Shown here: positions 3,021 through 36,379 of the stretch, one piece after another
Numbering within the stretch: position 1 is the stretch's first letter
Layout of the letters: every line of letters begins with the position of its first letter
From: Gammaproteobacteria bacterium
GTDB lineage: Bacteria > Pseudomonadota > Gammaproteobacteria > CAJXQU01
Direction: 5' to 3'
Length of the DNA stretch: 64,000 nucleotides
NCBI GenBank assembly: GCA_965238175.1
Contig: CBDEGZ010000003.1
Span: forward strand, 416,001-480,000
Notes under the pieces: generated by a model
What the model saw: the letters and a program-made list of their open reading frames with translations, nothing else
Told to the model about the DNA's origin: nothing
Database searches by the model: none
Program-made: the position numbers and the translations under genes

Positions 3021-4328
3021 ATGGTGCAATCCTCCAATGATATTATCCCTTTCCCATCAAAACCACGTATTTATAAACGATCAGAGCACAATATTTCACG
3101 CGACGCCATCTCGGAACAAGCATTAAAAGTACTCTATCGACTCCAACAAGCAGGTTACCAGGCGCATCTTGTTGGAGGTGGTGTACGTGATATTTTACTC
3201 GGCGTGGCTCCCAAAGATTTTGATATCGCGACCGATGCCAAGCCCGAACAGGTTCGTGAACTATTTCGAAATTGCAGATTAATCGGTCGTCGTTTTCGGC
3301 TTGCACACGTCCATTTTGGTCGTGAGATTATCGAAGTTGCAACGTTTCGGGCCAATCATGAAACAGGCGGTGATCGATTAATCGAAGACGGTATGATCCT
3401 GCGTGACAATGTTTATGGTGATATTGATGATGATGTCTGGCGACGCGACTTTACTGTCAATGCGCTTTACTACAATATCGCCGATTTTTCGATCGTTGAT
3501 TATGTCGGTGGCGTCGAAGATGTAAAAGCAGGGCTGATTAAATTCATCGGCGATCCGGAAGAACGTTACCGTGAAGATCCTGTGCGAATGCTACGCGCGA
3601 TCAGATTCGCGGCTAAACTCGATTTCACAATCGATCGAGCTACAGAAAAGTCGATCTCGGAACTCACCTATCTGCTCGGCGACATTCCAACCGCGCGCTT
3701 ATTTGAGGAAGTAAACAAACTCTTCCTCAGCGGTTATGCTCTAAAAACCTTTACGCAACTCCGTCATTACGGATTATTTGATCAATTATTTCCACAAGTT
3801 GAAAAGAGCCTGCAAGAAGAAAAAAATAGCTTTACAGAAAAAATATTGATCCAGGCGCTAAAAAATACCGATGAACGAATTGCGATCGGCAAACCAATTA
3901 ACCCTGCTTTTCTATACTCGGTAATGTTGTGGCAACCAATGCAAGAACATCTCAACCACTTCCTTAGCAATGGTGCCCACCCCGTAGAAGCTCAGCGCTT
4001 GGCCGCGGATACGGTCATCTCAAAACAAATCGCGAAAGTGGCTGTTCCGCGACGATTTACTCATATGGTACGTGAGATCTGGGAACTGCAGCACCGCTTA
4101 CAAAATCGACGTGGTAAGAAACCTTATAACCTACTACACAACAAACGTTTCCGGGCAGCGTATGACTTTTTGCTACTGCGGTCAGAAGTCGATGAAACCC
4201 AAAAAGAACTAGCTGATTGGTGGACTGAGTTTCAGGATGTTGATGAAGATCGTCAGCGTGAAATGCAAACCGGTTTACCTGCGGATAAATCAAAACGTCG
4301 TCGTTCAAGAAAACGCAAAAAGTCTTAA
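3021..4328 (+). CDS. pcnB: Poly(A) polymerase I
   Basis: LVGGGVRD, PKDFDIAT, LIGRRFRLAHV signature, RRDFTVNAL; upstream of folK; start uncertain. Confidence 0.95.
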   Translation: MVQSSNDIIPFPSKPRIYKRSEHNISRDAISEQALKVLYRLQQAGYQAHLVGGGVRDILLGVAPKDFDIATDAKPEQVRELFRNCRLIGRRFRLAHVHFGREIIEVATFRANHETGGDRLIEDGMILRDNVYGDIDDDVWRRDFTVNALYYNIADFSIVDYVGGVEDVKAGLIKFIGDPEERYREDPVRMLRAIRFAAKLDFTIDRATEKSISELTYLLGDIPTARLFEEVNKLFLSGYALKTFTQLRHYGLFDQLFPQVEKSLQEEKNSFTEKILIQALKNTDERIAIGKPINPAFLYSVMLWQPMQEHLNHFLSNGAHPVEAQRLAADTVISKQIAKVAVPRRFTHMVREIWELQHRLQNRRGKKPYNLLHNKRFRAAYDFLLLRSEVDETQKELADWWTEFQDVDEDRQREMQTGLPADKSKRRRSRKRKKS

Positions 4329-8031: not shown

Positions 8032-9618
8032 TTATAAATCCTTAAATTTCAGATTATATTTATTTAAGTAAACTCTTATTCGCTGTGAATCATTATTAGT
8101 TTCCTTTTTTGAACTACTTCGATTAAAAAGTTGCCTACCTGCATCAGCCATACTTTTGCTTTCTTTGCAGAGACGAATAACATGTGTAAGTTGTGCCTGT
8201 TCAAACAAATCTAGATTTTCATAAGCTCCACTTGTGAGCGTATTTTTAAGCAGCTCATCATCACTATTGCTTTTAGAATCTTTGTAACCATTCCAATCCA
8301 TCTGTAATCGCTGTATTTCATGATCAACAATACTCTCCGTAATTCGGCCACCCGTCGCTAAGGTTGCCATTCGGGTGATACTCGAATTCAGATCACGAAA
8401 GTTTGCTTTCCATTCAGCGAAAGAACTTAACGAGAACGCAAGGTATTTTGATTTTGCCGAGCTGTTAAAACCAATTTTATGATTCATATCCTGTGCATAG
8501 CGTTGAAGTTCATATTCTATATTTGGTTCAATATCTTCATAACGTTCTTTGAGTGAAGGCAGCTGGTAGTTCCACAAGTTGATTCTGGCTAGTAGATCTT
8601 CTCTGAATTTACCTTCTTCAACGAGTTGATAGAGATTGCGATTTGTTCCTGCGATGAGCTGAAAATCGCTGCTGACTTTTTGATCGGAACCAAACGGAGT
8701 AAACACTTTTTCTTCAATCGCTCGTAGTAACATGGCTTGTTCGTCTAAACCGAGCTCACCGATTTCATCCAAAAAAAGTAACCCGTGATTTGCTTCTAAT
8801 AATAATCCATTTCGATTATTCACAGCTCCTGTATAGGCGCCCTTTATATGCCCAAACAGCGTAGACATGGCATTATCACCACGCAATGTTGCGCAATTAA
8901 CTTCGACTAATTGCCCTTTAAGCTGTGTGCGCTGCTGTTTTAATTCGTATATTTTTTTGGCTAAATGTGACTTGCCAACACCAGTTGGTCCCATCAATAA
9001 AATAGGCGCTTTTGATCGAATAGCAACTTGCTCAATTTCATCAATAAGTTGGTTATATCGTTTATTGCGGGTTTCGATTCCATCTTTAAGATAACTAATG
9101 TCTTGTTGGGCATCGCGGTTAAATCGAGAGGCAATTTGATCATAACGAGAAAGATCCAGATCAATAGTAAATAACTCACCATGCGCACCTTCTTTACTCG
9201 GTGCAGTCTGAATCAGTTTACCCGGGAAATAATTCGCTTCAGTCAGCAGATAAATACAGATCTGTGCGACGTGCGTTCCTGTCGTGATATGAAAATGGTA
9301 GTTGTTATTTTCAGGATCAAAATTGTAAGCATGTGAAAAGTCGTGCAGTTGACTATAGACCTGCTCAAAATCCCAGGGATCATCATAGTCTACAAGGTAA
9401 ATAGAAATCTCAATATCCAGGCAAAGAGTGCTGATGTCTTTTAAAGTGAGGTCTAATAATGCCTGATCTTGTTTGTGATAGATCAGGATCAATTCATCAA
9501 CTGGAAACTCATGGTGCATCAACAATGACATGGTTGGACGCCAGCGTAACCAGCGCTTACTTCCAAGGCCTACATTATCAAGACGAGAGCCTAAAATCCC
9601 AATAACTATATTATTCAT
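8032..9618 (-). CDS. rtcR: RNA-repair sigma54-dependent activator RtcR
   Basis: N-terminal RWRPT, DPWDFEQVY, HITTGTHVAQIC (RtcR sensor domain); AAA+ GPTGVGKS, GAYTGA, LFLDEIGEL; divergent from rtcB. Confidence 0.95.
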   Translation of the reverse strand: MNNIVIGILGSRLDNVGLGSKRWLRWRPTMSLLMHHEFPVDELILIYHKQDQALLDLTLKDISTLCLDIEISIYLVDYDDPWDFEQVYSQLHDFSHAYNFDPENNNYHFHITTGTHVAQICIYLLTEANYFPGKLIQTAPSKEGAHGELFTIDLDLSRYDQIASRFNRDAQQDISYLKDGIETRNKRYNQLIDEIEQVAIRSKAPILLMGPTGVGKSHLAKKIYELKQQRTQLKGQLVEVNCATLRGDNAMSTLFGHIKGAYTGAVNNRNGLLLEANHGLLFLDEIGELGLDEQAMLLRAIEEKVFTPFGSDQKVSSDFQLIAGTNRNLYQLVEEGKFREDLLARINLWNYQLPSLKERYEDIEPNIEYELQRYAQDMNHKIGFNSSAKSKYLAFSLSSFAEWKANFRDLNSSITRMATLATGGRITESIVDHEIQRLQMDWNGYKDSKSNSDDELLKNTLTSGAYENLDLFEQAQLTHVIRLCKESKSMADAGRQLFNRSSSKKETNNDSQRIRVYLNKYNLKFKDL

Positions 9619-9641
9619 AAATATATAATTATATATTTATA

Positions 9642-9667
9642 GATAGATTTCAAGAATATTATCTATC
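9642..9667. promoter_or_regulatory. Candidate RtcR upstream activator site
   Basis: Inverted repeat GATAGAT-N12-ATCTATC about 100 bp upstream of the sigma54 promoter; IHF-like TTTCAATAACTTA at 9716-9728 lies between. Confidence 0.45.
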
Positions 9668-9757
9668 ATCATATTTCTACTAAAACACATCATAAAAAAA
9701 ATATTAATTTATATATTTCAATAACTTAAATATAAATTTCCAAGCTTGCAAAAAAGC

Positions 9758-9773
9758 TGGCAGGCCCATTGCA
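9758..9773 (+). promoter_or_regulatory. Sigma54 (-24/-12) promoter of rtcB operon
   Basis: TGGCAGGCCCATTGCA with exact GG-N10-GC spacing. Confidence 0.88.
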
Positions 9774-9840
9774 ATAATCTCTATCGAAAACAATTGAAAC
9801 GAATACTAAATTACTAAACAAGAATAGAAGGAAGATCAAA

Positions 9841-11094
9841 ATGGACCAGCAAAACAACATTAAAAACTCAAGCAACTATGACGTGTTATACGCAAATATT
9901 TCGAGAGTACCGGTTAAGTCATGGACCAAAGGTGTGCCGTTTGATCAGAATTCAAAGGATCAATTATTGAGCCTTTCGCAAATGCCTTTTATCCATAAAT
10001 GGATTGCGGCAATGCCTGATGTTCATGTTGGGAAAGGGGCCACGATAGGAAGCGTCATCCCAACATTTGGTGCGGTTATTCCTGCTGCCGTCGGTGTGGA
10101 TTTAGGTTGCGGAATGATGGCAGCAAAAACGACTCTGACGGCCAATGACCTGCCTGACGATTTAGCTGATATGCGTAGCGCAATTGAAAGTTTGGTTCCA
10201 CATGGTCGCTCTGCTCGACGTCGTGGTGGTCGTGATAAAGGTAGCTGGGGAAATATACCAGATGATGTGGCTGAAGCATGGTCGCCACTAGCTGATGGAT
10301 TTGATCGCCTGGTTGAAAAGCATCCGTTTTTGAAGAATACCAATAACGTCGCGCATTTAGGAACATTGGGAACAGGTAATCACTTTGTAGAGATCTGCCT
10401 GGACGAAAATGAGGATGTCTGGGTGATGTTACATAGCGGATCTCGTGGTGTGGGTAATGCGATTGGAAGACATTTTATCGAAAAAGCACAACGAGATATG
10501 GAACGCTGGTTTATTCATTTGCCTGATCGAGATCTGGCTTATATACCAGAGGGCAGCGAGCAGTTTGGTCACTATATTTCTGCAGTGTCATGGGCACAAG
10601 ATTTTGCCCGCATTAATCGTGAAATAATGATGCAGCGAACATTGCAAGCCATGACTGATGTTTTACCAATAGCATTTACGGCTGATGTAGAAGCGGTGAA
10701 TTGTCACCATAACTACATCCGTAAAGAGAACCACTACGACGAAAACGTGTGGGTCACTCGAAAAGGTGCGGTGAGTGCTCGCAAAGGCGAAATGGGCATT
10801 ATCCCAGGAAGTATGGGTGCGAAATCATTCATCGTTCGAGGGCTTGGAAATGAAGAAAGCTTTTGTAGTTGTAGCCATGGAGCAGGACGTGTGATGTCAC
10901 GTACTCAAGCAAAAAAAGTAGTTTCATTAGCAGAACACGTTCAAGCCACGAAAGGTGTGGAATGCCGTAAAGATGCGAGTGTAATTGATGAAACTCCAGC
11001 AGCGTATAAACCGATTGAACAAGTCATGGAAGCACAAAATGATCTTGTGGAAATAGTACATACCTTAAAGCAGGTCGTGTGCGTAAAAGGATAA
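9841..11094 (+). CDS. rtcB: RNA ligase RtcB (3'-phosphate/5'-OH)
   Basis: MPDVH, GVDLGCG, GTLGTGNHF, HSGSRG, CHHNY, SHGAGR, C-terminal VKG. Confidence 0.97.
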   Translation: MDQQNNIKNSSNYDVLYANISRVPVKSWTKGVPFDQNSKDQLLSLSQMPFIHKWIAAMPDVHVGKGATIGSVIPTFGAVIPAAVGVDLGCGMMAAKTTLTANDLPDDLADMRSAIESLVPHGRSARRRGGRDKGSWGNIPDDVAEAWSPLADGFDRLVEKHPFLKNTNNVAHLGTLGTGNHFVEICLDENEDVWVMLHSGSRGVGNAIGRHFIEKAQRDMERWFIHLPDRDLAYIPEGSEQFGHYISAVSWAQDFARINREIMMQRTLQAMTDVLPIAFTADVEAVNCHHNYIRKENHYDENVWVTRKGAVSARKGEMGIIPGSMGAKSFIVRGLGNEESFCSCSHGAGRVMSRTQAKKVVSLAEHVQATKGVECRKDASVIDETPAAYKPIEQVMEAQNDLVEIVHTLKQVVCVKG

Positions 11095-11203
11095 GCGCGG
11101 AAAGCAGATGCTGGAATGGGCCAGCACCTTTTAGGAAAGAAGAATTCTGTATATTTCTGTTAAAAAAGTAGTTAGGAAAATACAACAAAGAATCTCAATC
11201 TTT

Positions 11204-11278
11204 ACAAACTTGCGGAGCTGGTTTTAACCAGCCTGACACCAGGTTCTTTGAGCCAATGTGTATCGGTTTGTGCGGGTT
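11204..11278 (+). ncRNA. Putative branched structured RNA element
   Basis: AACTTGC/GCGGGTT closing helix (11207-13/11272-78) encloses GCTGG-TTTTAA-CCAGC and GGTTC-TTT-GAGCC hairpins. Confidence 0.4.
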
Positions 11279-11286
11279 AGATAACT

Positions 11287-11352
11287 ATCGTTATAGCTAA
11301 ATGGTAAAGCGCTGGAAACAGTCATGTGATGGTTCGACTCCATCTAACGATG
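11287..11352 (+). ncRNA. tRNA-like RNA lacking an anticodon (arm replaced by CTG-GAAA-CAG)
   Basis: 7-bp acceptor ATCGTTA/TAACGAT; TAGCT..TGGTA..AGC D arm; T arm GATGG-TTCGACT-CCATC; no encoded CCA. Confidence 0.85.
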
Positions 11353-11354
11353 CT

Positions 11355-11428
11355 ATCACTATAGCTCATATGGTTAGAGCAGTTGACTCAAAATCAATTT
11401 GTAGCCGGTTCGAATCCGGCTAGTGAAC
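11355..11428 (+). tRNA. Atypical tRNA or tRNA-like RNA, anticodon CAA, short variable loop
   Basis: Acceptor TCACTA/TAGTGA with A1:A72 mismatch; D arm GCTC/GAGC; GTTGA-CTCAAAA-TCAAT; T arm GCCGG-TTCGAAT-CCGGC; no encoded CCA. Confidence 0.85.
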
Positions 11429-11484
11429 CGCCGAAAGGCACCAACTTACACATTAAAGTGTATTGAAATAATGTCTGAAAGGAC

Positions 11485-11761
11485 AATGTAAAACGCTCCA
11501 GACAGCAGATCATTTATGAAAAATATTCTAGTTGTTGAAGATTTCACCTTCTTCGGAAGAGGCAGTTCAGAGATAACAAGAGTGGCCTGAATAGGTCTGA
11601 ATAGACTTGAAGCGTCAACATGCAAACGACCTTTGTGGTGGGTTTGTAACTTGCGAATTTATGAGACTTTTCAATAGAGATAATTCTGTTGTCATCGCCA
11701 TAATCATCCCAGGATACATAAACCAACGAGCTAGTTTGTATGTGGAGCGTTTACATTTTTT
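11485..11761 (+). ncRNA. Putative ~275-nt structured ncRNA upstream of the SPFH gene
   Basis: 15-bp end helix 11485-11500/11743-11757 with one bulged A, then a T run; nested 9-bp helix 11501-09/11685-93; C(UUCG)G hairpin at 11548-59. Confidence 0.6.
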
Positions 11762-11774
11762 AAGGAGAATTAGT

Positions 11775-12938
11775 ATGTTTTTTATGAAAAAAATTATCGT
11801 TCCTGAAACGCATCATGCTTTGTTATTCAAAGACGAGCCGTTCAGTAATGTACTTATGCCAGGTGTTTATAATTTGCTCGACTTAAGAAATCGAATTAGA
11901 TTTTCTCTAGTTGATATTTCTAACACCTTAGAAAATGGTGTAAATGATCAGGCGATGAAAGTTTTAAAACTACATCCTGAAAAAATGAACGCACACGTAC
12001 AAATCTGGGAAACCGGAGAACATGAAGTAGGACTTGCTTATCAAGACAATATCTTGAAAGAAATTAAAGCACCTGCCGAACGTGGCGCTTATTGGACAGG
12101 TTTTGGTGAAGTAACGATCAAAAAAATCGATATTTCTGAAATCTTCAAGCTGGATAAAACACTCGCAAGAATGGTGTTAGCCGCTAAAGACTCCTTGCTT
12201 AAAAACTCAGCAATTAGCGCAGTGACTACGGCTACTATTCCAGAACGTCATTTTGGTTTTTTGGAAGTTGGTGGTGAACAGCACTCTAAGTTAGACGCAG
12301 GTATCCATGTTTGGTGGAAATTCAATCGTAACCTAAAGGTTAAACAGATTGATTTAAGGCTACAAAACATGGAAGTTAATGGACAAGAAATTTTGACCAA
12401 AGACCGTGTTGGTTTGCGTGTTAATTTATCTGCTACCTGGCAAGTCAGTGATGCAAAACGTGTGTCTGCAGAATTAGCAGATCATACTGATTATTTGTAC
12501 CGTGAATTGCAGTTAGCATTGCGTACGATTGTTTCCACTCAAACATTGGATGAGTTGCTTGTCGATAAAAATAAACTGAATCAAAAAATTCAAGAGATTG
12601 TTGTCAGTAAAGCCTCTCAATACGGCATTGAGTTAAAAACGGTTGGTGCAAGAGATATTGTTTTACCCGGTGAAATGAAAACGATTTTGAGCCAAGTTGT
12701 TGAAGCCGAAAAAATGGCTGAAGCAAATTTGATCAAACGTAGAGAAGAAACCCAGGCGACAAGATCATTGCACAACACTGCAAAAGTGATGGAAGGAAAC
12801 CCAACCCTTTTACGTTTGAAAGAACTGGAAGTGCTAGAAAAAATCACATCACAGATCAGTACGCTAAATGTTTATGGTGGCTTGGATGGCGTTATGAACG
12901 ACATGGTTCGTATCCCATCGACAGCTGCTAAGACATGA
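11775..12938 (+). CDS. SPFH/Band-7 (slipin-family) protein
   Basis: AAGGAG SD plus ATG 11775; QEILTKDRVGLRVNL, DIVLPGEMK, RREETQATRSLHNTAKVMEGNPTLLRLKELE; no obvious TM helix. Confidence 0.9.
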   Translation: MFFMKKIIVPETHHALLFKDEPFSNVLMPGVYNLLDLRNRIRFSLVDISNTLENGVNDQAMKVLKLHPEKMNAHVQIWETGEHEVGLAYQDNILKEIKAPAERGAYWTGFGEVTIKKIDISEIFKLDKTLARMVLAAKDSLLKNSAISAVTTATIPERHFGFLEVGGEQHSKLDAGIHVWWKFNRNLKVKQIDLRLQNMEVNGQEILTKDRVGLRVNLSATWQVSDAKRVSAELADHTDYLYRELQLALRTIVSTQTLDELLVDKNKLNQKIQEIVVSKASQYGIELKTVGARDIVLPGEMKTILSQVVEAEKMAEANLIKRREETQATRSLHNTAKVMEGNPTLLRLKELEVLEKITSQISTLNVYGGLDGVMNDMVRIPSTAAKT

Positions 12939-12949
12939 TGTTTTTTTAG

Positions 12950-12980
12950 AATGGAGTTAAGCACAAAACTTAGCTCCATT
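12950..12980. terminator. Hairpin terminator after the SPFH gene
   Basis: AATGGAGTTAAG-CACAAAA-CTTAGCTCCATT followed by pyrimidine-rich sequence. Confidence 0.65.
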
Positions 12981-13034: not shown

Positions 13035-13460
13035 ATGAAAAGTAGCAAACAAAGAAGATTGGAAATTAAAGAAAAAAGGAGAAAAAAAGCTGCAAAGTTA
13101 AAAATTAGTACTTTTGAGGTTTGTGATCCTCTTCCTAAAGGGGCTGTCTTATCAAGCTCAATGGAACTCCGCCATAATAATATTTATTGTGTTTTACCAC
13201 TTTTTTATGTCGATAAAGCTTATAGTTGTCAGGACTGTGGTTCAAAAGAATTATGGACAGCTAAACAACAAAAATGGTGGTACGAAATTGCAAAAGGTAA
13301 TATTTATTCTAGCGCAGTAAAATGTTTGAAATGCCGAAAAAAAATAAAACCAGAAAAAGAGACTCAAAAAAACACATGGAAAAAATGGCACTTAAAGAAC
13401 CCCATCCAAATGAGGCTTTTTTTAAGAAACGTTAATTATTTCAGGAAAAAATCAAGATAA
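13035..13460 (+). CDS. Zinc-ribbon (zf-trcl-like) protein, possibly frameshifted near the C-terminus
   Basis: YVDKAYSCQDCG...WTAKQQKWWYE...CLKC (two CxxC pairs). Confidence 0.75.
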   Translation: MKSSKQRRLEIKEKRRKKAAKLKISTFEVCDPLPKGAVLSSSMELRHNNIYCVLPLFYVDKAYSCQDCGSKELWTAKQQKWWYEIAKGNIYSSAVKCLKCRKKIKPEKETQKNTWKKWHLKNPIQMRLFLRNVNYFRKKSR

Positions 13461-13517: not shown

Positions 13518-14743
13518 TGTAGAAGTTTAGACCCAATCTGACACATCACTAAATCAAGCGGAGCGTAGCGACGCTTGATTTAGTGAGAGTTACCCGCTTT
13601 GATGTAACTGCAACGTAAACATCAAAACACAAAGAGGTAACTCTCATGATTCATACTAATGACAAAGTTATAAAACATAAAGTTGGTCTACTCAATCTCG
13701 CTGAAGAACTCGGCAATGTCTCAAAAGCCTGCAAGATGATGGGTTTGTCCAGAGATACATTTTATCGCTACAAAGAAGCGGCTGATGAAGGCGGTGTAGA
13801 AGCCTTGTTTGATCGTAATCGGCGTACCCCAAATCTTAAAAACAGAATCGACCCGGCTATTGAAACCGTTGTGCTCGAGTATGCACTGGAAGAGCCCGCA
13901 CATGGTCAAACGCGCACCAGTAACGAGCTGCGCAAACGGGGAACATTTGTCTCACCCAGTGGCGTTCGTTGTATCTGGCTTCGTCATGGTCTTGCTTGCT
14001 TTAAAGATCGCCTGAAGGCATTGTCTGATAAGGTAGCTGGTGAAGGCTTGATCCTCACTGAGTCTCAAGTCGCGGCGATGGAACGCAAAAAAGACGACGA
14101 TGAGGCTTGTGGCGAGATAGAAACGGCACACCCTGGTTATCTTGGCTCGCAAGATACTTACTATGTCGGTACTTTCAAAGGCATTGGTCGGGTTTATCAA
14201 CAAACGTTTGTTGATACTTACAGCAAGGTCGCTCACGCGAAACTGTACCCGACTAAAACACCGATTACGGCAGCTGACATGCTCAATGACCGCGTCCTCC
14301 CATTCTACGAACAACAACGTTTGCCTATGTTGCGCATTTTGACAGATAGAGGGACGGAGTATTGTGGGCGAGCTGACCAGCATGATTATCAGCTTTATAT
14401 GGCGTTGAACAATATCGAACACACCAAAACCAAGGTCAAATCACCTCAGACGAATGGTATTTGTGAGCGATTCCATAAGACGATCCTCAATGAGTTTTAT
14501 CAAGTCGCTTTGCGTAAGAAAATTTACCAATCGATTGATGAACTGCAACTCGACCTTGACGAATGGTTGCTCAAATACAATACTCAACGAACTCACCAAG
14601 GCAAAATGTGCTGCGGGAGGACGCCGATGGAAACACTCATCGACGGACAAGCTATCTGGAAGGAAAAGTTTGTGAATTAAACTTAACCTGACAGTCGGTT
14701 ACTGATAATTGGGTAACTGTCAGATCAAATCTGAATTTCTACA
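13518..14743 (+). mobile_element. IS481-family insertion sequence, copy 1 (1226 bp)
   Basis: TGT...ACA ends, imperfect terminal IRs (TGTAGAAGTTTAGA / TGTAGAAATTCAGA); flanked by AATTAGT direct repeat; second copy at 61583-62808. Confidence 0.93.
13646..14680 (+). CDS. IS481-family DDE transposase
   Basis: HTH (GNVSKACKMMGLSRDTFYRY), QDT, LTDRGTEY, PQTNGICERFHKT, YNTQRTHQG. Confidence 0.94.
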   Translation: MIHTNDKVIKHKVGLLNLAEELGNVSKACKMMGLSRDTFYRYKEAADEGGVEALFDRNRRTPNLKNRIDPAIETVVLEYALEEPAHGQTRTSNELRKRGTFVSPSGVRCIWLRHGLACFKDRLKALSDKVAGEGLILTESQVAAMERKKDDDEACGEIETAHPGYLGSQDTYYVGTFKGIGRVYQQTFVDTYSKVAHAKLYPTKTPITAADMLNDRVLPFYEQQRLPMLRILTDRGTEYCGRADQHDYQLYMALNNIEHTKTKVKSPQTNGICERFHKTILNEFYQVALRKKIYQSIDELQLDLDEWLLKYNTQRTHQGKMCCGRTPMETLIDGQAIWKEKFVN

Positions 14744-34678: not shown

Positions 34679-36379
34679 TCAAAACAGGAAATAGCGTTGG
34701 GCAAGTGGTAATTCAGCTGCTGGCTCACAGGTTAATAATTCGCCATCTGCAAAGACCTGATATGTTTGAGAGTCAACTTCAATTTCAGGTTGGTAGTCAT
34801 TCAGTACCATATCGGTTTTGGTGATATTTCGACAATTTTTTACCACACCCACCATGCTCTTTAATCCAAGTTGTCCTGCGAGATCATCTTGTTGCGCCGC
34901 CTGTGAAACAAAGGTCATTTTTGTTGCATAGCGGGCGCCACCAAACGTTGCAAACATAGGCCGATAATGTACGGGTTGAGGTGTTGGAATAGAGGCATTT
35001 GGATCACCCATGGGTGCTGCGGCAATCATACCGCCCTTGATAATCAAATTTGGCTTTGTTGCAAAAAAGGCAGGATCCCATAACACAAGATCAGCCAACT
35101 TACCGACCTCAACGGATCCCACCTCATGAGATATGCCATGTGTTATTGCCGGATTTATAGTGTATTTAGCGATATAGCGTTTAGCTCTAAAATTATCAGC
35201 TTCGCGATCATTATCTAAAGCGCCGCGTTGCACTTTCATTTTATGGGCGGTTTGCCATGTTCGAGTGATCACTTCACCAACGCGGCCCATAGCTTGTGAG
35301 TCCGATGCAATCATCGAAAAGGCGCCTAAATCATGCAAAATATCCTCAGCAGCAATGGTTTCTCGTCGGATCCGAGACTCTGCAAACGCCACATCTTCAG
35401 CAATATTGGGATCAAGGTGATGGCAGACCATCAACATATCTAGATGTTCGTCAACGGTATTAATAGTGTAAGGCCTGGTTGGGTTAGTCGACGACGGTAA
35501 AACAAAAGGCTCACCACAGGCTTTGATAATATCGGGGGCGTGGCCGCCGCCAGCACCTTCGGTATGATAGGTGTGAATTGTTCTCCCTTTCATAGCTGCT
35601 AAAGTATGCTCAACAAAACCAGATTCGTTTAAGGTGTCAGTATGAATTGCGACTTGCACATCCATTTTGTCTGCCACAGATAAACAAGTATCGATCGATG
35701 CCGGCGTTGTGCCCCAATCTTCATGTAATTTCAGGCCGATGGCACCTGCACGCACCTGTTCTTCAAGTGGTGCCCGGTTGCTGGCATTACCTTTAGCCAG
35801 ATAACCAATATTGATCGGTAAATCTTCCGCCGCCTGTAGCATGCGATGCATATTCCAAATGCCTGGTGTACAAGTTGTGGCATTGGTGCCGGTTGCGGGT
35901 CCTGTGCCGCCGCCCAACATTGTTGTCACACCGGACATTAAAGCTTCTTCAATCTGTTGAGGACAAATAAAATGAATATGTGAATCGATTCCACCAGCCG
36001 TTAAAATCTGACCTTCGCCAGCAATAACTTCGGTTCCAGGTCCAACTAAGATAGTCACGCCCGGCTGGATATCAGGGTTGCCTGCCTTACCAATACCGAC
36101 AATACGACCATGCTTAATACCGATATCGGCTTTAATAATACCCCAGTGATCCAGTATCAATGCATTTGTGATAACGAGATCAACAACGTCAGCATCATTA
36201 CCTTGGCATTGTCCCATACCATCCCGAATTACTTTGCCGCCACCAAATTTGACTTCATCACCATAGACAGTGTGATCCTTTTCGATTTCTATCCAGAGCT
36301 CAGTATCACCCAAACGAACACGGTCACCGGTGGTTGGGCCATACATTTCCATATAGGCTTGTCTGTTAATGGCCGTCAT
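34679..36379 (-). CDS. ureC: Urease subunit alpha
   Basis: [38 protein letters not shown]. Confidence 0.98.

Follow-up and report, generated by a model that had tools for sequence, protein, structure and literature searches.

The locus described here, in a 64,000-nucleotide (nt) stretch of gammaproteobacterial DNA (contig CBDEGZ010000003.1, positions 416,001 to 480,000; hereafter the window), carries a composite structured RNA, made up of the parts U, T1, T2, and D, immediately upstream of a gene for a predicted soluble SPFH/Band-7 protein, and to judge by the sequences it is this pair, not rtcB, that forms the conserved core. The comparative data strongly support both the RNA/SPFH-gene architecture and its tight linkage, and the finding is carried by the anatomy of the locus, its conservation, the covariation of its base pairs, its linkage to the Band-7 gene, and the placement of its promoters. 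The whole is probably an RNA-repair operon of the RtcB/Band-7/b7a-tRNA type under RtcR/sigma-54 control, whose structured RNA and SPFH protein would act as a ribonucleoprotein (RNP) working with RtcB.

RESULTS

Layout of the locus

The first-pass annotation had placed a divergent rtcR gene opposite a sigma-54 promoter that drives rtcB, and both features were found again (Table 1), rtcR by its Pfam domains and the promoter by its −24/−12 motif (TGGCAGgcccaTTGCA). The same motif stands upstream of rtcB in 16 other loci. The rtcB and Band-7 genes lie on one strand and are separated by 680 non-coding bases. The genome, which is 97.7% complete, has no match to RtcA (PF01137) or to TROVE/Ro60 (PF05731), in agreement with the earlier statement that rtcA and rsr are missing. 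A terminator had also been annotated after the SPFH gene; a 9-bp hairpin does stand there, but it has no U tract, and a consensus terminator scan made no call. Hairpins like the small one that follows rtcB, with altered stems, occur in loci L009, L010, L013, and L014 (alignment A2). An IS transposase gene lies 700 nt downstream within the window. A zf_Tbcl gene 3' of the SPFH gene was not counted as part of the system, because it is absent from the downstream open reading frames of 18 sampled loci.

Table 1. Features of the locus, with positions numbered from the first base of the window
Feature	Position	Strand	Basis and remarks
rtcR (CARF-type RtcR domain and sigma-54 activator AAA+)	8032-9618	-	Pfam RtcR, 9.6e-70; Sigma54_activat, 3.1e-48
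Sigma-54 promoter (-24/-12), TGGCAG-N5-TTGCA	9758-9773	+	Read by eye; regex match
rtcB, RNA ligase	9841-11094	+	Pfam RtcB, 1.2e-127, full length
Small hairpin GCUGG/CCAGC, then ACCUUUU	11110-11125	+	Sequence
U, three-way-junction RNA	11183-11287	+	Alignment A3, covariance model R1
T1, degenerate tRNA-like unit	11287-11352	+	Rfam tRNA, 48.4 bits
T2, well-formed tRNA-like unit	11355-11428	+	Rfam tRNA, 57.9 bits; ARAGORN
Two to three small hairpins, including GCC-GAAA-GGC (11430-11439) and GUCU-GAAA-GGAC (11473-11484)	11430-11484	+	Sequence
D, rod-like domain	11486-11756	+	Closing helix 11486-11499/11744-11756; rod 11610-11763
SPFH/Band-7 ("slipin") gene, soluble protein of 387 residues	11775-12938	+	Pfam Band_7, 6.8e-27
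9-bp hairpin 3' of the SPFH gene, no U tract	12953-12977	+	Sequence

The spacer consists of four conserved RNA parts

The spacer had been described as densely structured, and it folds better than each of 20 shuffled sequences (z = −3.56); the part 3' of the tRNA-like units folds better than all of 100 shuffles (z = −3.79). It is composed of four conserved structured parts, U, T1, T2, and D, of about 590 nt together, each of which carries compensatory base changes across the relatives. The "two further folded elements" that had been noticed beside the tRNA-like genes proved to be real and conserved, with compensatory changes in 21 pairs of U and in 22 pairs of the D rod. Three covariance models were built, R1 for U, R2 for the tRNA-like pair, and R3 for the 3' rod of D, not the whole D region. 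In U (alignment A3), which has 25 pairs, 87.5% of cells are paired, versus 28 to 40% when slid; in the tRNA-like pair (34 pairs, 26 compensatory), 97.3%; and in the rod (27 pairs), 95.4%, versus 33 to 50% when slid. Over the three models, the slid values range from 26 to 50%. The structures recur at other loci, with R1 matching 71, R2 79, and R3 35 of the 81 Band-7 sources.

U has a near-invariant GGUU in one hairpin loop and the motifs CUGAC and GUGUAUC; it is present as a single copy in the genome, and every R1 match is on the + strand. Rfam 15 holds no family for U or for D. Whole-genome R1 searches with strict filters were positive in 2 of 151 genomes of the class and in none of five chosen genomes. 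In distant loci, direct cmsearch found one U match that was strong and three that were weak, and it detected tRNA-like units in five of seven, so the whole-genome blanks reflect the filters and divergence; in more distant relatives U is weak or undetected.

T1 and T2 abut in tandem as cloverleaves, and the two tandem tRNA-like genes seen in the first pass are borne out by their Rfam matches. T1 retains three arms (acceptor, D, and T) alongside a broken or replaced anticodon stem, and its 3' end is GCUA, not CCA; a CCA end of T1 at the T2 junction was counted by eye in 21 of 36 aligned loci. Since T1 is degenerate in the window, models that need a CCA-ended T1 are inapplicable here. T2 is the only one of the pair that ARAGORN calls, as "Leu-CAA", and it has no long variable arm and no CCA. 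The block of small hairpins that follows T2 includes a GNRA hairpin block in which 99.1% of cells are paired and three of four pairs are compensatory (alignment A5).

The traits of a decoding tRNA, namely, a conserved anticodon, identity elements, and a CCA end, were not found in T1 and T2, and on their sequences neither these units nor those of the relatives are decoding tRNAs. They might, alternatively, be normal tRNA genes or ones that decayed not long ago, as would be left, for example, by an integration site or a tRNA island, in an otherwise neutral spacer, and several observations fit this: both units exceed the Rfam tRNA threshold, true-looking tRNA arrays lie beside the module in loci L066, L068, L069, L071, L079, and L087, and the IS transposase gene is close by. 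Such an origin is nevertheless extremely unlikely. The ARAGORN "anticodons" vary by locus without constraint (cat, gtt, att, tgg, aaa, cca, and tta, the last a stop anticodon); of the genome's 39 ARAGORN calls, all but T2 end in CCA; the "Leu" unit has no long arm despite the presence of a real, long-armed tRNA-Leu(CAA) elsewhere in the genome; the placement relative to the Band-7 gene is kept down to about 41% protein identity; and the flanks covary strongly.

The core of the D closing helix, 5 bp formed by 11495-11499 with 11744-11748, is 97.3% paired in 30 sequences, with three of the five pairs compensatory, and the closing helix recurs in the minimum free energy (MFE) fold. Two candidates for this region were given up. 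A pseudoknot helix (A5 columns 419-424 with 452-457) was dropped at only 63.3% paired, and its 3' bases instead lengthen the closing helix in the window, in L017, in L023, and in the MFE fold; local hairpins in the 11615-11657 block gave way to the nested rod, the fold favored by covariation. A sequence-only nhmmer search found D blocks in only 25 to 28 of 81 regions, and an RNAduplex test of the closing helix over all loci did not discriminate (median z = −0.89; 14 of 72 below −2).

The RNA array is linked to the Band-7 gene and not to rtcB

In all 71 sources positive for U, it lies on the strand of the Band-7 gene and just upstream of it. In 80 related loci, rtcB is upstream in 49, downstream in 7, and absent from the stretch examined in 24, and the link between RNA array and Band-7 gene holds in each of these arrangements. 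The array was never found beside rtcB alone but always directly upstream of a Band-7 gene on the same strand, and its position, strand, and spacing are kept down to about 41% protein identity. Eight loci with no rtcB close upstream (L015, L016, L018, L021, L030, L031, L035, and L041) have a canonical sigma-54 promoter directly before U, and L085 and L086 have a near-consensus one; the array would therefore head an RtcR-type transcript there. Neighbors of other loci include enzymes that act on RNA ends: RtcA (in L083 and L085), Tpt1/KptA, and a PolyA_pol-family nucleotidyltransferase.

This constant position raises the question of whether U-T1-T2-D is a cis-acting 5' leader that tunes translation or stability of the SPFH mRNA and yields no separate stable RNA; it could, for example, sense tRNA-processing or -cleaving activities, with the D helix by the ribosome-binding site opening or closing as the tRNA-like units are cut or repaired. 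Besides the same-strand placement ahead of the Band-7 gene, never by rtcB alone, two features speak for such a leader. The promoter directly before U in the stand-alone loci would put U at the very start of the SPFH transcript, and D reaches close to the start of translation: the 3' strand of its closing helix ends 5 nt ahead of the Shine-Dalgarno (SD) sequence (AAGGAG, 11762-11767), and in most loci some 15 nt separate the end of the R3 match from the start codon. On the other side, known leaders manage with far less than about 590 nt of covarying RNA and two full tRNA shapes, and L008, L010, L013, L014, L037, and L043 have 100 to 220 nt extra between D and the start codon, so D does not always adjoin the SD sequence. 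The available part of Wang et al. (2018) describes b7a-tRNA and YrlA as trading places at the Band-7 and Rsr genes, which likewise favors a partner that acts in trans. We regard a leader without a separate RNA as somewhat unlikely, and a leader role and a trans-acting RNP are not mutually exclusive.

The SPFH protein has a predicted soluble, triplicated N-terminal architecture

The start of the Band-7 gene at 11775 was set by alignment with 12 homologues. Its product is laid out as three tandem beta-modules (approximately residues 6-52, 77-124, and 153-190), the SPFH core, and long coiled-coil helices, the SPFH domain with coiled coil being a trait of the slipin family. The beta-modules are internal repeats (hhalign probability, 96 to 97%). 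AlphaFold2 (AF2) modeled the protein with a pLDDT of 83 overall and 92 for residues 1-190, residues 1-150 (about 92) being modeled as beta-strands and short helices. The fold matches stomatin, HflK, prohibitin, and the major vault protein (MVP), with a PDB profile E value of 9.7e-28 against PH stomatin, VIA Z values of 16 to 18 against stomatin SPFH domains, and a Foldseek E value of 4e-15 among the membrane SPFH cages. Pfam, at E values up to 10, gave Band_7, Band_7_1, and a weak Stirrup match (E = 0.037) for the whole protein and no family for residues 1-190; a PDB profile search with the N-terminal 190 residues gave chance-level matches only (E = 0.08 and 0.21), and an Atlas search with the homologue P0048 gave nothing but fragments of the same family.

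All characterized SPFH relatives that we found (stomatin, HflK/C, prohibitin, flotillin, and QmcA) are membrane scaffolds, and the protein might likewise be a conventional scaffold of membrane microdomains, functionally unrelated to the RNAs and RtcB and merely sharing their stress promoter. Three points make this very unlikely. Kyte-Doolittle means over 19 residues peak at 0.85, which predicts no membrane segment at the N terminus or elsewhere, in keeping with the earlier description of the gene product as soluble looking; the N terminus, in place of an anchor, is modeled as an extra pair of beta-modules (pLDDT, 92); and the link of the SPFH gene to the RNA array persists where rtcB is absent.

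More than 6,000 protein clusters match the SPFH protein at E values up to 1e-5, the N-terminal extension not being confirmed in all of them. Of 151 genomes sampled in the class, 9 have the form with this N terminus, and a reduced form was found in 1,629 of 5,426 complete Escherichia coli genomes; for the E. coli version, searches with R1, R2, and the Rfam families were all negative. The SPFH protein was unmatched in a phage collection.

Comparison with known systems

[quoted passage not shown] The passage of Wang et al. (2018) that treats this prediction presents the system as an analogue of Rsr/Y RNA and reports that b7a-tRNA and YrlA exchange partners across Band-7 and Rsr loci; the earlier remark that the co-occurrence of RtcB, Band-7, and tRNA-like genes had been noted in comparative genomics is therefore right, as far as that passage goes. 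The idea that an SPFH protein replaces Ro60, with tRNA mimics as its partners, is the already published hypothesis of Burroughs and Aravind. Our locus resembles theirs in having RtcB beside a Band-7 protein (680 nt apart) and tRNA-like non-coding sequence between them, with two Rfam tRNA matches adjoining the Band-7 gene. It differs from b7a-tRNA as described in the Wang et al. passage in the tandem pair, the covarying U and D, the promoter before the RNA, and the triplicated N-terminal module. Judged against that description and Rfam 15, U and D, the sigma-54 promoter before U in stand-alone loci, and the triplicated beta-module with its vault-like layout may be new.

The Salmonella operon rsr-yrlB-yrlA-rtcB-rtcA is, in the available part of Hughes et al. 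(2020; PMC7790460), under the control of RtcR and damaged tRNAs. It shares with our locus RtcR/sigma-54 control, RtcB, and a non-coding RNA with a tRNA-like module beside a putative RNA-binding scaffold. In contrast, it has TROVE and RtcA proteins, both missing from this genome (the canonical rtcBA operon differs in RtcA as well), and its scaffold is a Ro ring, whereas here the scaffold would be the SPFH protein, with the RNA preceding its gene. The YrlA model (RF02553) reaches 22.6 bits here, spanning the T1/T2 junction, against a gathering score of 69.

The eukaryotic vault consists of the major vault protein, vault RNA, and the TROVE protein TEP1. The modeled layout of the SPFH protein may resemble that of MVP, with tandem beta-modules, an SPFH-like shoulder, a long cap helix, no membrane anchor, and a candidate small RNA partner; MVP is, however, about 860 residues long, as opposed to 387. 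MVP chains align to the model at Z values of 11 to 12.6, to which the N-terminal part adds nothing over the SPFH domain alone, and two MVP rows pair model residues 5/6-339 with MVP residues 272/323-688. No Pfam vault family was matched by the whole SPFH protein at E values up to 10. The membrane SPFH cages of stomatin, HflK/C, QmcA, prohibitin, and flotillin have the same SPFH core and coiled-coil helices; the protein studied here differs from them in having no membrane segment and two extra N-terminal copies of the beta-module. No NfeD-type partner was seen beside the SPFH gene in the window.

DISCUSSION

In the RNA-repair operon that we favor, damaged tRNA ends, which have been shown elsewhere to activate RtcR, would switch on a sigma-54 transcript carrying rtcB, the RNA array, and the SPFH mRNA. 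tRNA-processing enzymes would recognize the tRNA-like units, RNase P cutting at the T1/T2 junction to yield, in most relatives, a CCA-ended T1, and processing would release stable, non-decoding RNAs. These RNAs may assemble with an oligomeric, membrane-free SPFH shell; stomatin-type SPFH domains with coiled coils build cages in solved relatives. The resulting RNP could take the role that Ro60 and Y RNA have in Salmonella-type operons and present cleaved tRNAs to RtcB or sequester them; alternatively, it could be a tRNA mimic that competes with anticodon nucleases.

In favor of this explanation, the available part of one study (PMC7652931) reports that, in Acinetobacter baumannii exposed to tigecycline, rtcB and a downstream hypothetical gene, which may be the Band-7 homologue, are up 252-fold. 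Deletion of PaFlo8, a member of this locus type in Pseudomonas aeruginosa, gave no phenotype in general growth, motility, biofilm formation, virulence factors, or oxidative stress in the available part of another (PMC13086221), RNA damage not being among the conditions it lists. We count these null phenotypes against the favored explanation, together with the 5'-leader position of the array and the D helix near the SD sequence, which fit a cis-regulatory leader equally well, and with the limited reach of the D rod (35 of 81) and of U, which is weak or undetected in more distant relatives, and the negative R1, R2, and Rfam searches of the E. coli version.

A bolder and rather unlikely form of the proposal is a closed, vault-like cytosolic SPFH shell built on or filled with the RNA of about 590 nt. 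Its two extra beta-module copies would stand where the relatives have their membrane anchor, and it would be a bacterial equivalent of the Ro and vault ribonucleoproteins, induced through RtcR upon tRNA cleavage. Its job might be to capture broken tRNAs on behalf of RtcB or to protect them against anticodon nucleases; U and D would be new RNA classes that provide the handles for protein binding.

What bacterial RtcB operons and the non-coding RNAs that accompany them do is a standing question, and the RtcB/Band-7 RNA module is common, to judge by the more than 6,000 matching clusters. Through the present analysis, what was loosely called a "tRNA-like gene" becomes an RNA with exact boundaries and three covariance models, together with predictions of where transcription would start and of where, at the T1/T2 junction, the RNA would be processed. 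By its gene content this is a real RNA-repair locus, in which the joint function of RNA, SPFH protein, and RtcB is inferred. A soluble SPFH shell, if the modeled architecture holds true, would put to unusual use a fold that has otherwise been met only in the vault and in membrane scaffolds.

Layout of the locus

The host genome is 3.35 Mb in size with 40% G+C, and the locus has its closest named relatives in records of uncultured Cocleimonas and Thiotrichaceae. The first-pass annotation had described an rtcR gene, a sigma-54 promoter, rtcB, a noncoding spacer and an SPFH (Band_7, slipin) gene, and all of these were recovered by Pfam searches, by reading of the promoter and by homologue alignment. 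The start codon of the SPFH gene was set by alignment with 12 homologues, every one of which starts at that point, and this leaves 680 noncoding bases 3′ of rtcB. RtcA and TROVE, both claimed to be absent, indeed gave no match in the host genome, which is 97.7% complete. A second RtcB paralogue (387 aa; G000:C3:709411-710523, locus L001) is encoded elsewhere in the same genome, where its neighbors are insertion sequence (IS) genes (rve, HTH_38) and a 317-residue open reading frame (ORF) without a Pfam match; neither rtcR nor the RNA array nor the SPFH gene is found beside it.

Features of the window locus and of related loci (coordinates are those of the window unless a locus or accession is named)
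Feature	Coordinates	Strand	Description or basis
rtcR	8032-9618	-	CARF-type RtcR domain and sigma-54 activator; Pfam
Promoter	9758-9773		sigma-54, -24/-12, TGGCAGgcccaTTGCA
rtcB	9841-11094	+	RtcB; Pfam
U	11183-11287		three-way junction, 25 pairs; 34-sequence alignment
T1	11287-11352		Rfam tRNA model, 48.4 bits
T2	11355-11428		Rfam tRNA model, 57.9 bits
D rod	11610-11763		within the long-range helix; three stacked helices, conserved internal loops, 27 pairs
SPFH gene	11775-12938	+	Band_7/SPFH protein; Pfam
Recurring neighbor enzymes	L021:5210-5755; L015:5652-6188; L059:2829-3407; L079:2859-3416; L068:5331-5906; L085:7593-8861		
Canonical promoter before U			L015, L016, L018, L021, L030, L031, L035, L041
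E. coli example (L097)	CP061233.1, 607811-616932		RNA region 3690-4000

Several further features were seen at or near the locus. A hairpin (GCUGG/CCAGC, then ACCUUUU) lies at 11110-11125, 15 nt past the rtcB stop codon, and four close relatives carry comparable hairpins whose stems differ; it may serve in attenuation or as a processing site. Directly 3′ of the SPFH gene is a gene for a 141-residue zf_Tbcl (treble-clef) protein (13035-13460, +), followed by an IS transposase gene (HTH_29 and rve; 13646-14680, +). No such treble-clef gene was seen again when ORFs downstream of the module were sampled in 18 related loci. Farther along the window, the Rfam family 5_ureB_sRNA matches at full length (35944-36229, +; 95.4 bits, gathering score of 40), which implies that the other strand encodes a urease gene, ureB.

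The spacer encodes a tandem tRNA-like pair flanked by two structured elements

The spacer was compared across 80 loci encoding SPFH relatives of 41 to 80% identity, giving 81 regions with the window. Within it, the two tandem tRNA-like genes of the first-pass annotation, T1 and T2, both match the Rfam tRNA model. ARAGORN called T2 (as Leu-CAA) but not T1, in which the acceptor, D, and T arms are kept and the anticodon stem is replaced. T2 is without the long variable arm that the host's real tRNA-Leu(CAA) carries, and of the 39 ARAGORN calls made in the genome, all but T2 end in CCA; judged from these features, T2 is not a decoding tRNA. A same-strand tRNA-like call lies 180 to 480 nt 5′ of the SPFH gene in 67 of the 81 regions (window counted), with "anticodons" that vary among loci (cat, gtt, att, tgg, aaa, cca, and the stop anticodon tta). 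R2, a covariance model of the pair built on 36 loci as a double cloverleaf, has 97.3% of its cells paired, compared with 26 to 42% in slid controls, and shows compensatory change at 26 of 34 pairs. According to the match table, 79 of 81 sources have an R2 match 5′ of the Band-7 gene, and 41 matches reach 105 bits or more; the two sources without one are L021 and the truncated L076. Counted by eye, 21 of 36 aligned loci have a T1 whose last bases, CCA, directly adjoin the start of T2 (GCUA in the window). An RNase P cut there, freeing the T2 5′ terminus, would thus yield a CCA-ended T1; such processing at the junction is suggested by the sequences. Tandem arrays of up to a dozen tRNA-like or true tRNA genes adjoin the Band-7 module in some loci (L066, L068, L069, L071, L079, L087, and L059, from Kangiellaceae, Cellvibrionaceae, Sulfurifustis, and others).

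The two further folded elements that had been noticed were likewise borne out, as U and as a rod in the downstream domain D. Conserved blocks along the whole spacer were already visible across eight close relatives, and a profile made from these located the upstream block in 34 regions. In the resulting alignment of U, compensatory change is seen at 21 of 25 pairs, the paired cells amount to 87.5% (28 to 40% in slid controls), and the covariation score is 0.64 (at most 0.14 in slid controls). A near-invariant GGUU opens one of the hairpin loops, which we take to resemble a T-loop. The U model, R1, has matches in 71 of 81 sources, at 72 places that are all on the SPFH strand; apart from a second place in L037, each adjoins the tRNA-like pair. 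R1 matches once in the host genome, and Rfam gave no match in the U region. In two close relatives, L013 (∼3080-3190) and L014, an extra conserved segment lies 5′ of U in the rtcB-U spacer; the segment, whose end in L013 is ...GGGTTCGAATCCCGTCATCTCCACCA, has the look of a CCA-bearing 3′ half of tRNA or tmRNA type.

Small hairpins follow T2, two of them of GNRA type (11430-11439, and 11473-11484, whose column block is 99.1% paired). A long-range helix pairs 11486-11499 with 11744-11756. Folding the window's D by itself to minimum energy recovers this helix, and in 30 sequences the 5-bp core of the helix is 97.3% paired, three of the five pairs showing compensatory change. The enclosed rod is 95.4% paired (33 to 50% in slid controls), with compensatory change at 22 of 27 pairs. 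Its model, R3, matches in 35 of 81 sources, throughout on the + strand, and in most of these the match ends ∼15 nt 5′ of the start codon. No R3 match was obtained in Cellvibrionaceae, Kangiellaceae, or Alteromonas-type loci, where a spacer of 230 to 440 nt is still present, suggesting that D is either lineage limited or diverged past the reach of R3. 

The RNA array and the SPFH gene form the invariant unit

Placement of rtcB varies among the 80 loci: rtcR-rtcB lies 5′ of the array in 49, rtcB lies 3′ of the SPFH gene in 7 (followed by rtcA in L083 and L085), and 24 have no rtcB within the retrieved stretch, some of them on short contigs. In Thiothrix and Thiolinea, the array and the SPFH gene are embedded among housekeeping genes unrelated to them, and in some cases Tpt1/KptA follows. 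Together, these arrangements indicate that the invariant unit is the RNA array plus the SPFH gene. Enzymes acting on RNA ends or nucleic acids recur beside it, namely, Tpt1/KptA 2′-phosphotransferase, HNH endonucleases, and a PolyA_pol-family nucleotidyltransferase (the last carried by L085). In eight loci where rtcB is not close upstream, a canonical TGGCAC-N5-(T/C)TGC promoter lies immediately 5′ of U, and L085 and L086, with rtcB downstream, have a near-consensus TGGCAC-N5-TTG promoter at the same place. With the promoter adjoining U, the predicted start of transcription falls on the U 5′ terminus, and the module is linked to a sigma-54 activator.

Among 151 sampled genomes of the class, 9 encode the N-terminal form of the SPFH protein. 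At seven retrieved loci, tRNA-like matches lie upstream in five, and U is strong in one and weak in three; a same-genus genome, searched in all but 8000 bases, shows neither this N-terminal form nor U. The IS and this patchy distribution suggest an accessory region at the window locus.

A reduced relative occurs in 1,629 of 5,426 complete E. coli genomes (∼30%; at least 80% of the stretch covered), where the DUF3811 gene and lysC are separated by an insertion carrying a slipin gene and a nucleotidyltransferase gene. In the example L097, a sigma-54-like promoter (TGGCACgcttcTCGCA) and a lone T-arm-like hairpin (GGGTTCGATTCCC) lie 5′ of the slipin gene, and neither R1 nor R2 nor any Rfam family matches the RNA region.

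The SPFH protein is predicted to be soluble and may have a vault-like layout

The 19-residue Kyte-Doolittle means of the SPFH protein never rise above 0.85, which predicts a protein free of membrane segments, in line with its description as soluble looking. The AlphaFold model has a pLDDT of 83 overall and 92 for residues 1 to 190. Residues ∼150 to 365 match stomatin, HflK/C, prohibitin, erlin, and flotillin (Foldseek E value of 4e-15; VIA Z of 14 to 18; profile E value of 1e-27 for Pyrococcus horikoshii stomatin). Such parts form oligomeric cages in solved structures. Residues 1 to 150 have no Pfam or PDB sequence match; by profile-profile comparison, residues 6 to 52, 77 to 124, and 153 to 190 are three copies of one beta-module (probability of 96 to 97%), the third being the customary start of the SPFH domain. 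Chains of the major vault protein match the model with Z of 11.1 to 12.6, and two of the alignments cover model residues 5/6 to 339. In tandem beta-modules, an SPFH shoulder, a long helix, the lack of an anchor, and an associated RNA, the modeled layout resembles that of the vault, a likeness that falls short of demonstrating membership.

Relation to earlier work and proposed function

A passage in Wang et al. 2018 (bioRxiv 10.1101/312249), summarizing Burroughs and Aravind 2016, states that some bacteria encode RtcB beside a Band-7 protein and a predicted "band 7-associated tRNA," which at times swaps places with YrlA beside Rsr and whose existence was still unvalidated as of 2018. This is the co-occurrence that, according to the first-pass annotation, had been noted in comparative genomics, and its interpretation is the hypothesis of Burroughs and Aravind as summarized there; its observations stand in almost all details. 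An excerpt of PMC13086221 places PA14_60630 (PaFlo8) within the Pseudomonas aeruginosa rtc locus and reports no phenotype of its deletion in general assays, and one of PMC7652931 reports 252-fold induction of rtcB and a downstream hypothetical gene by tigecycline in Acinetobacter baumannii. Our search of the literature on RtcB with SPFH, stomatin, slipin, or Band-7, on b7a-tRNA, and on vault turned up no experiments on either the RNA or the complex, as had been stated. The U and D elements, the tandem layout of the pair, and the repeat architecture may already have been published.

The window locus belongs to a predicted, uncharacterized RtcB/Band-7/tRNA-like kind. Linkage, covariation, promoter placement, and fold lead us to infer a ribonucleoprotein in which tRNA mimics and a soluble SPFH shell would aid or regulate RtcB-type repair; the main alternative is that the RNA array is a cis-regulatory leader. 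With its exact anatomy and three RNA models, the system becomes directly testable.
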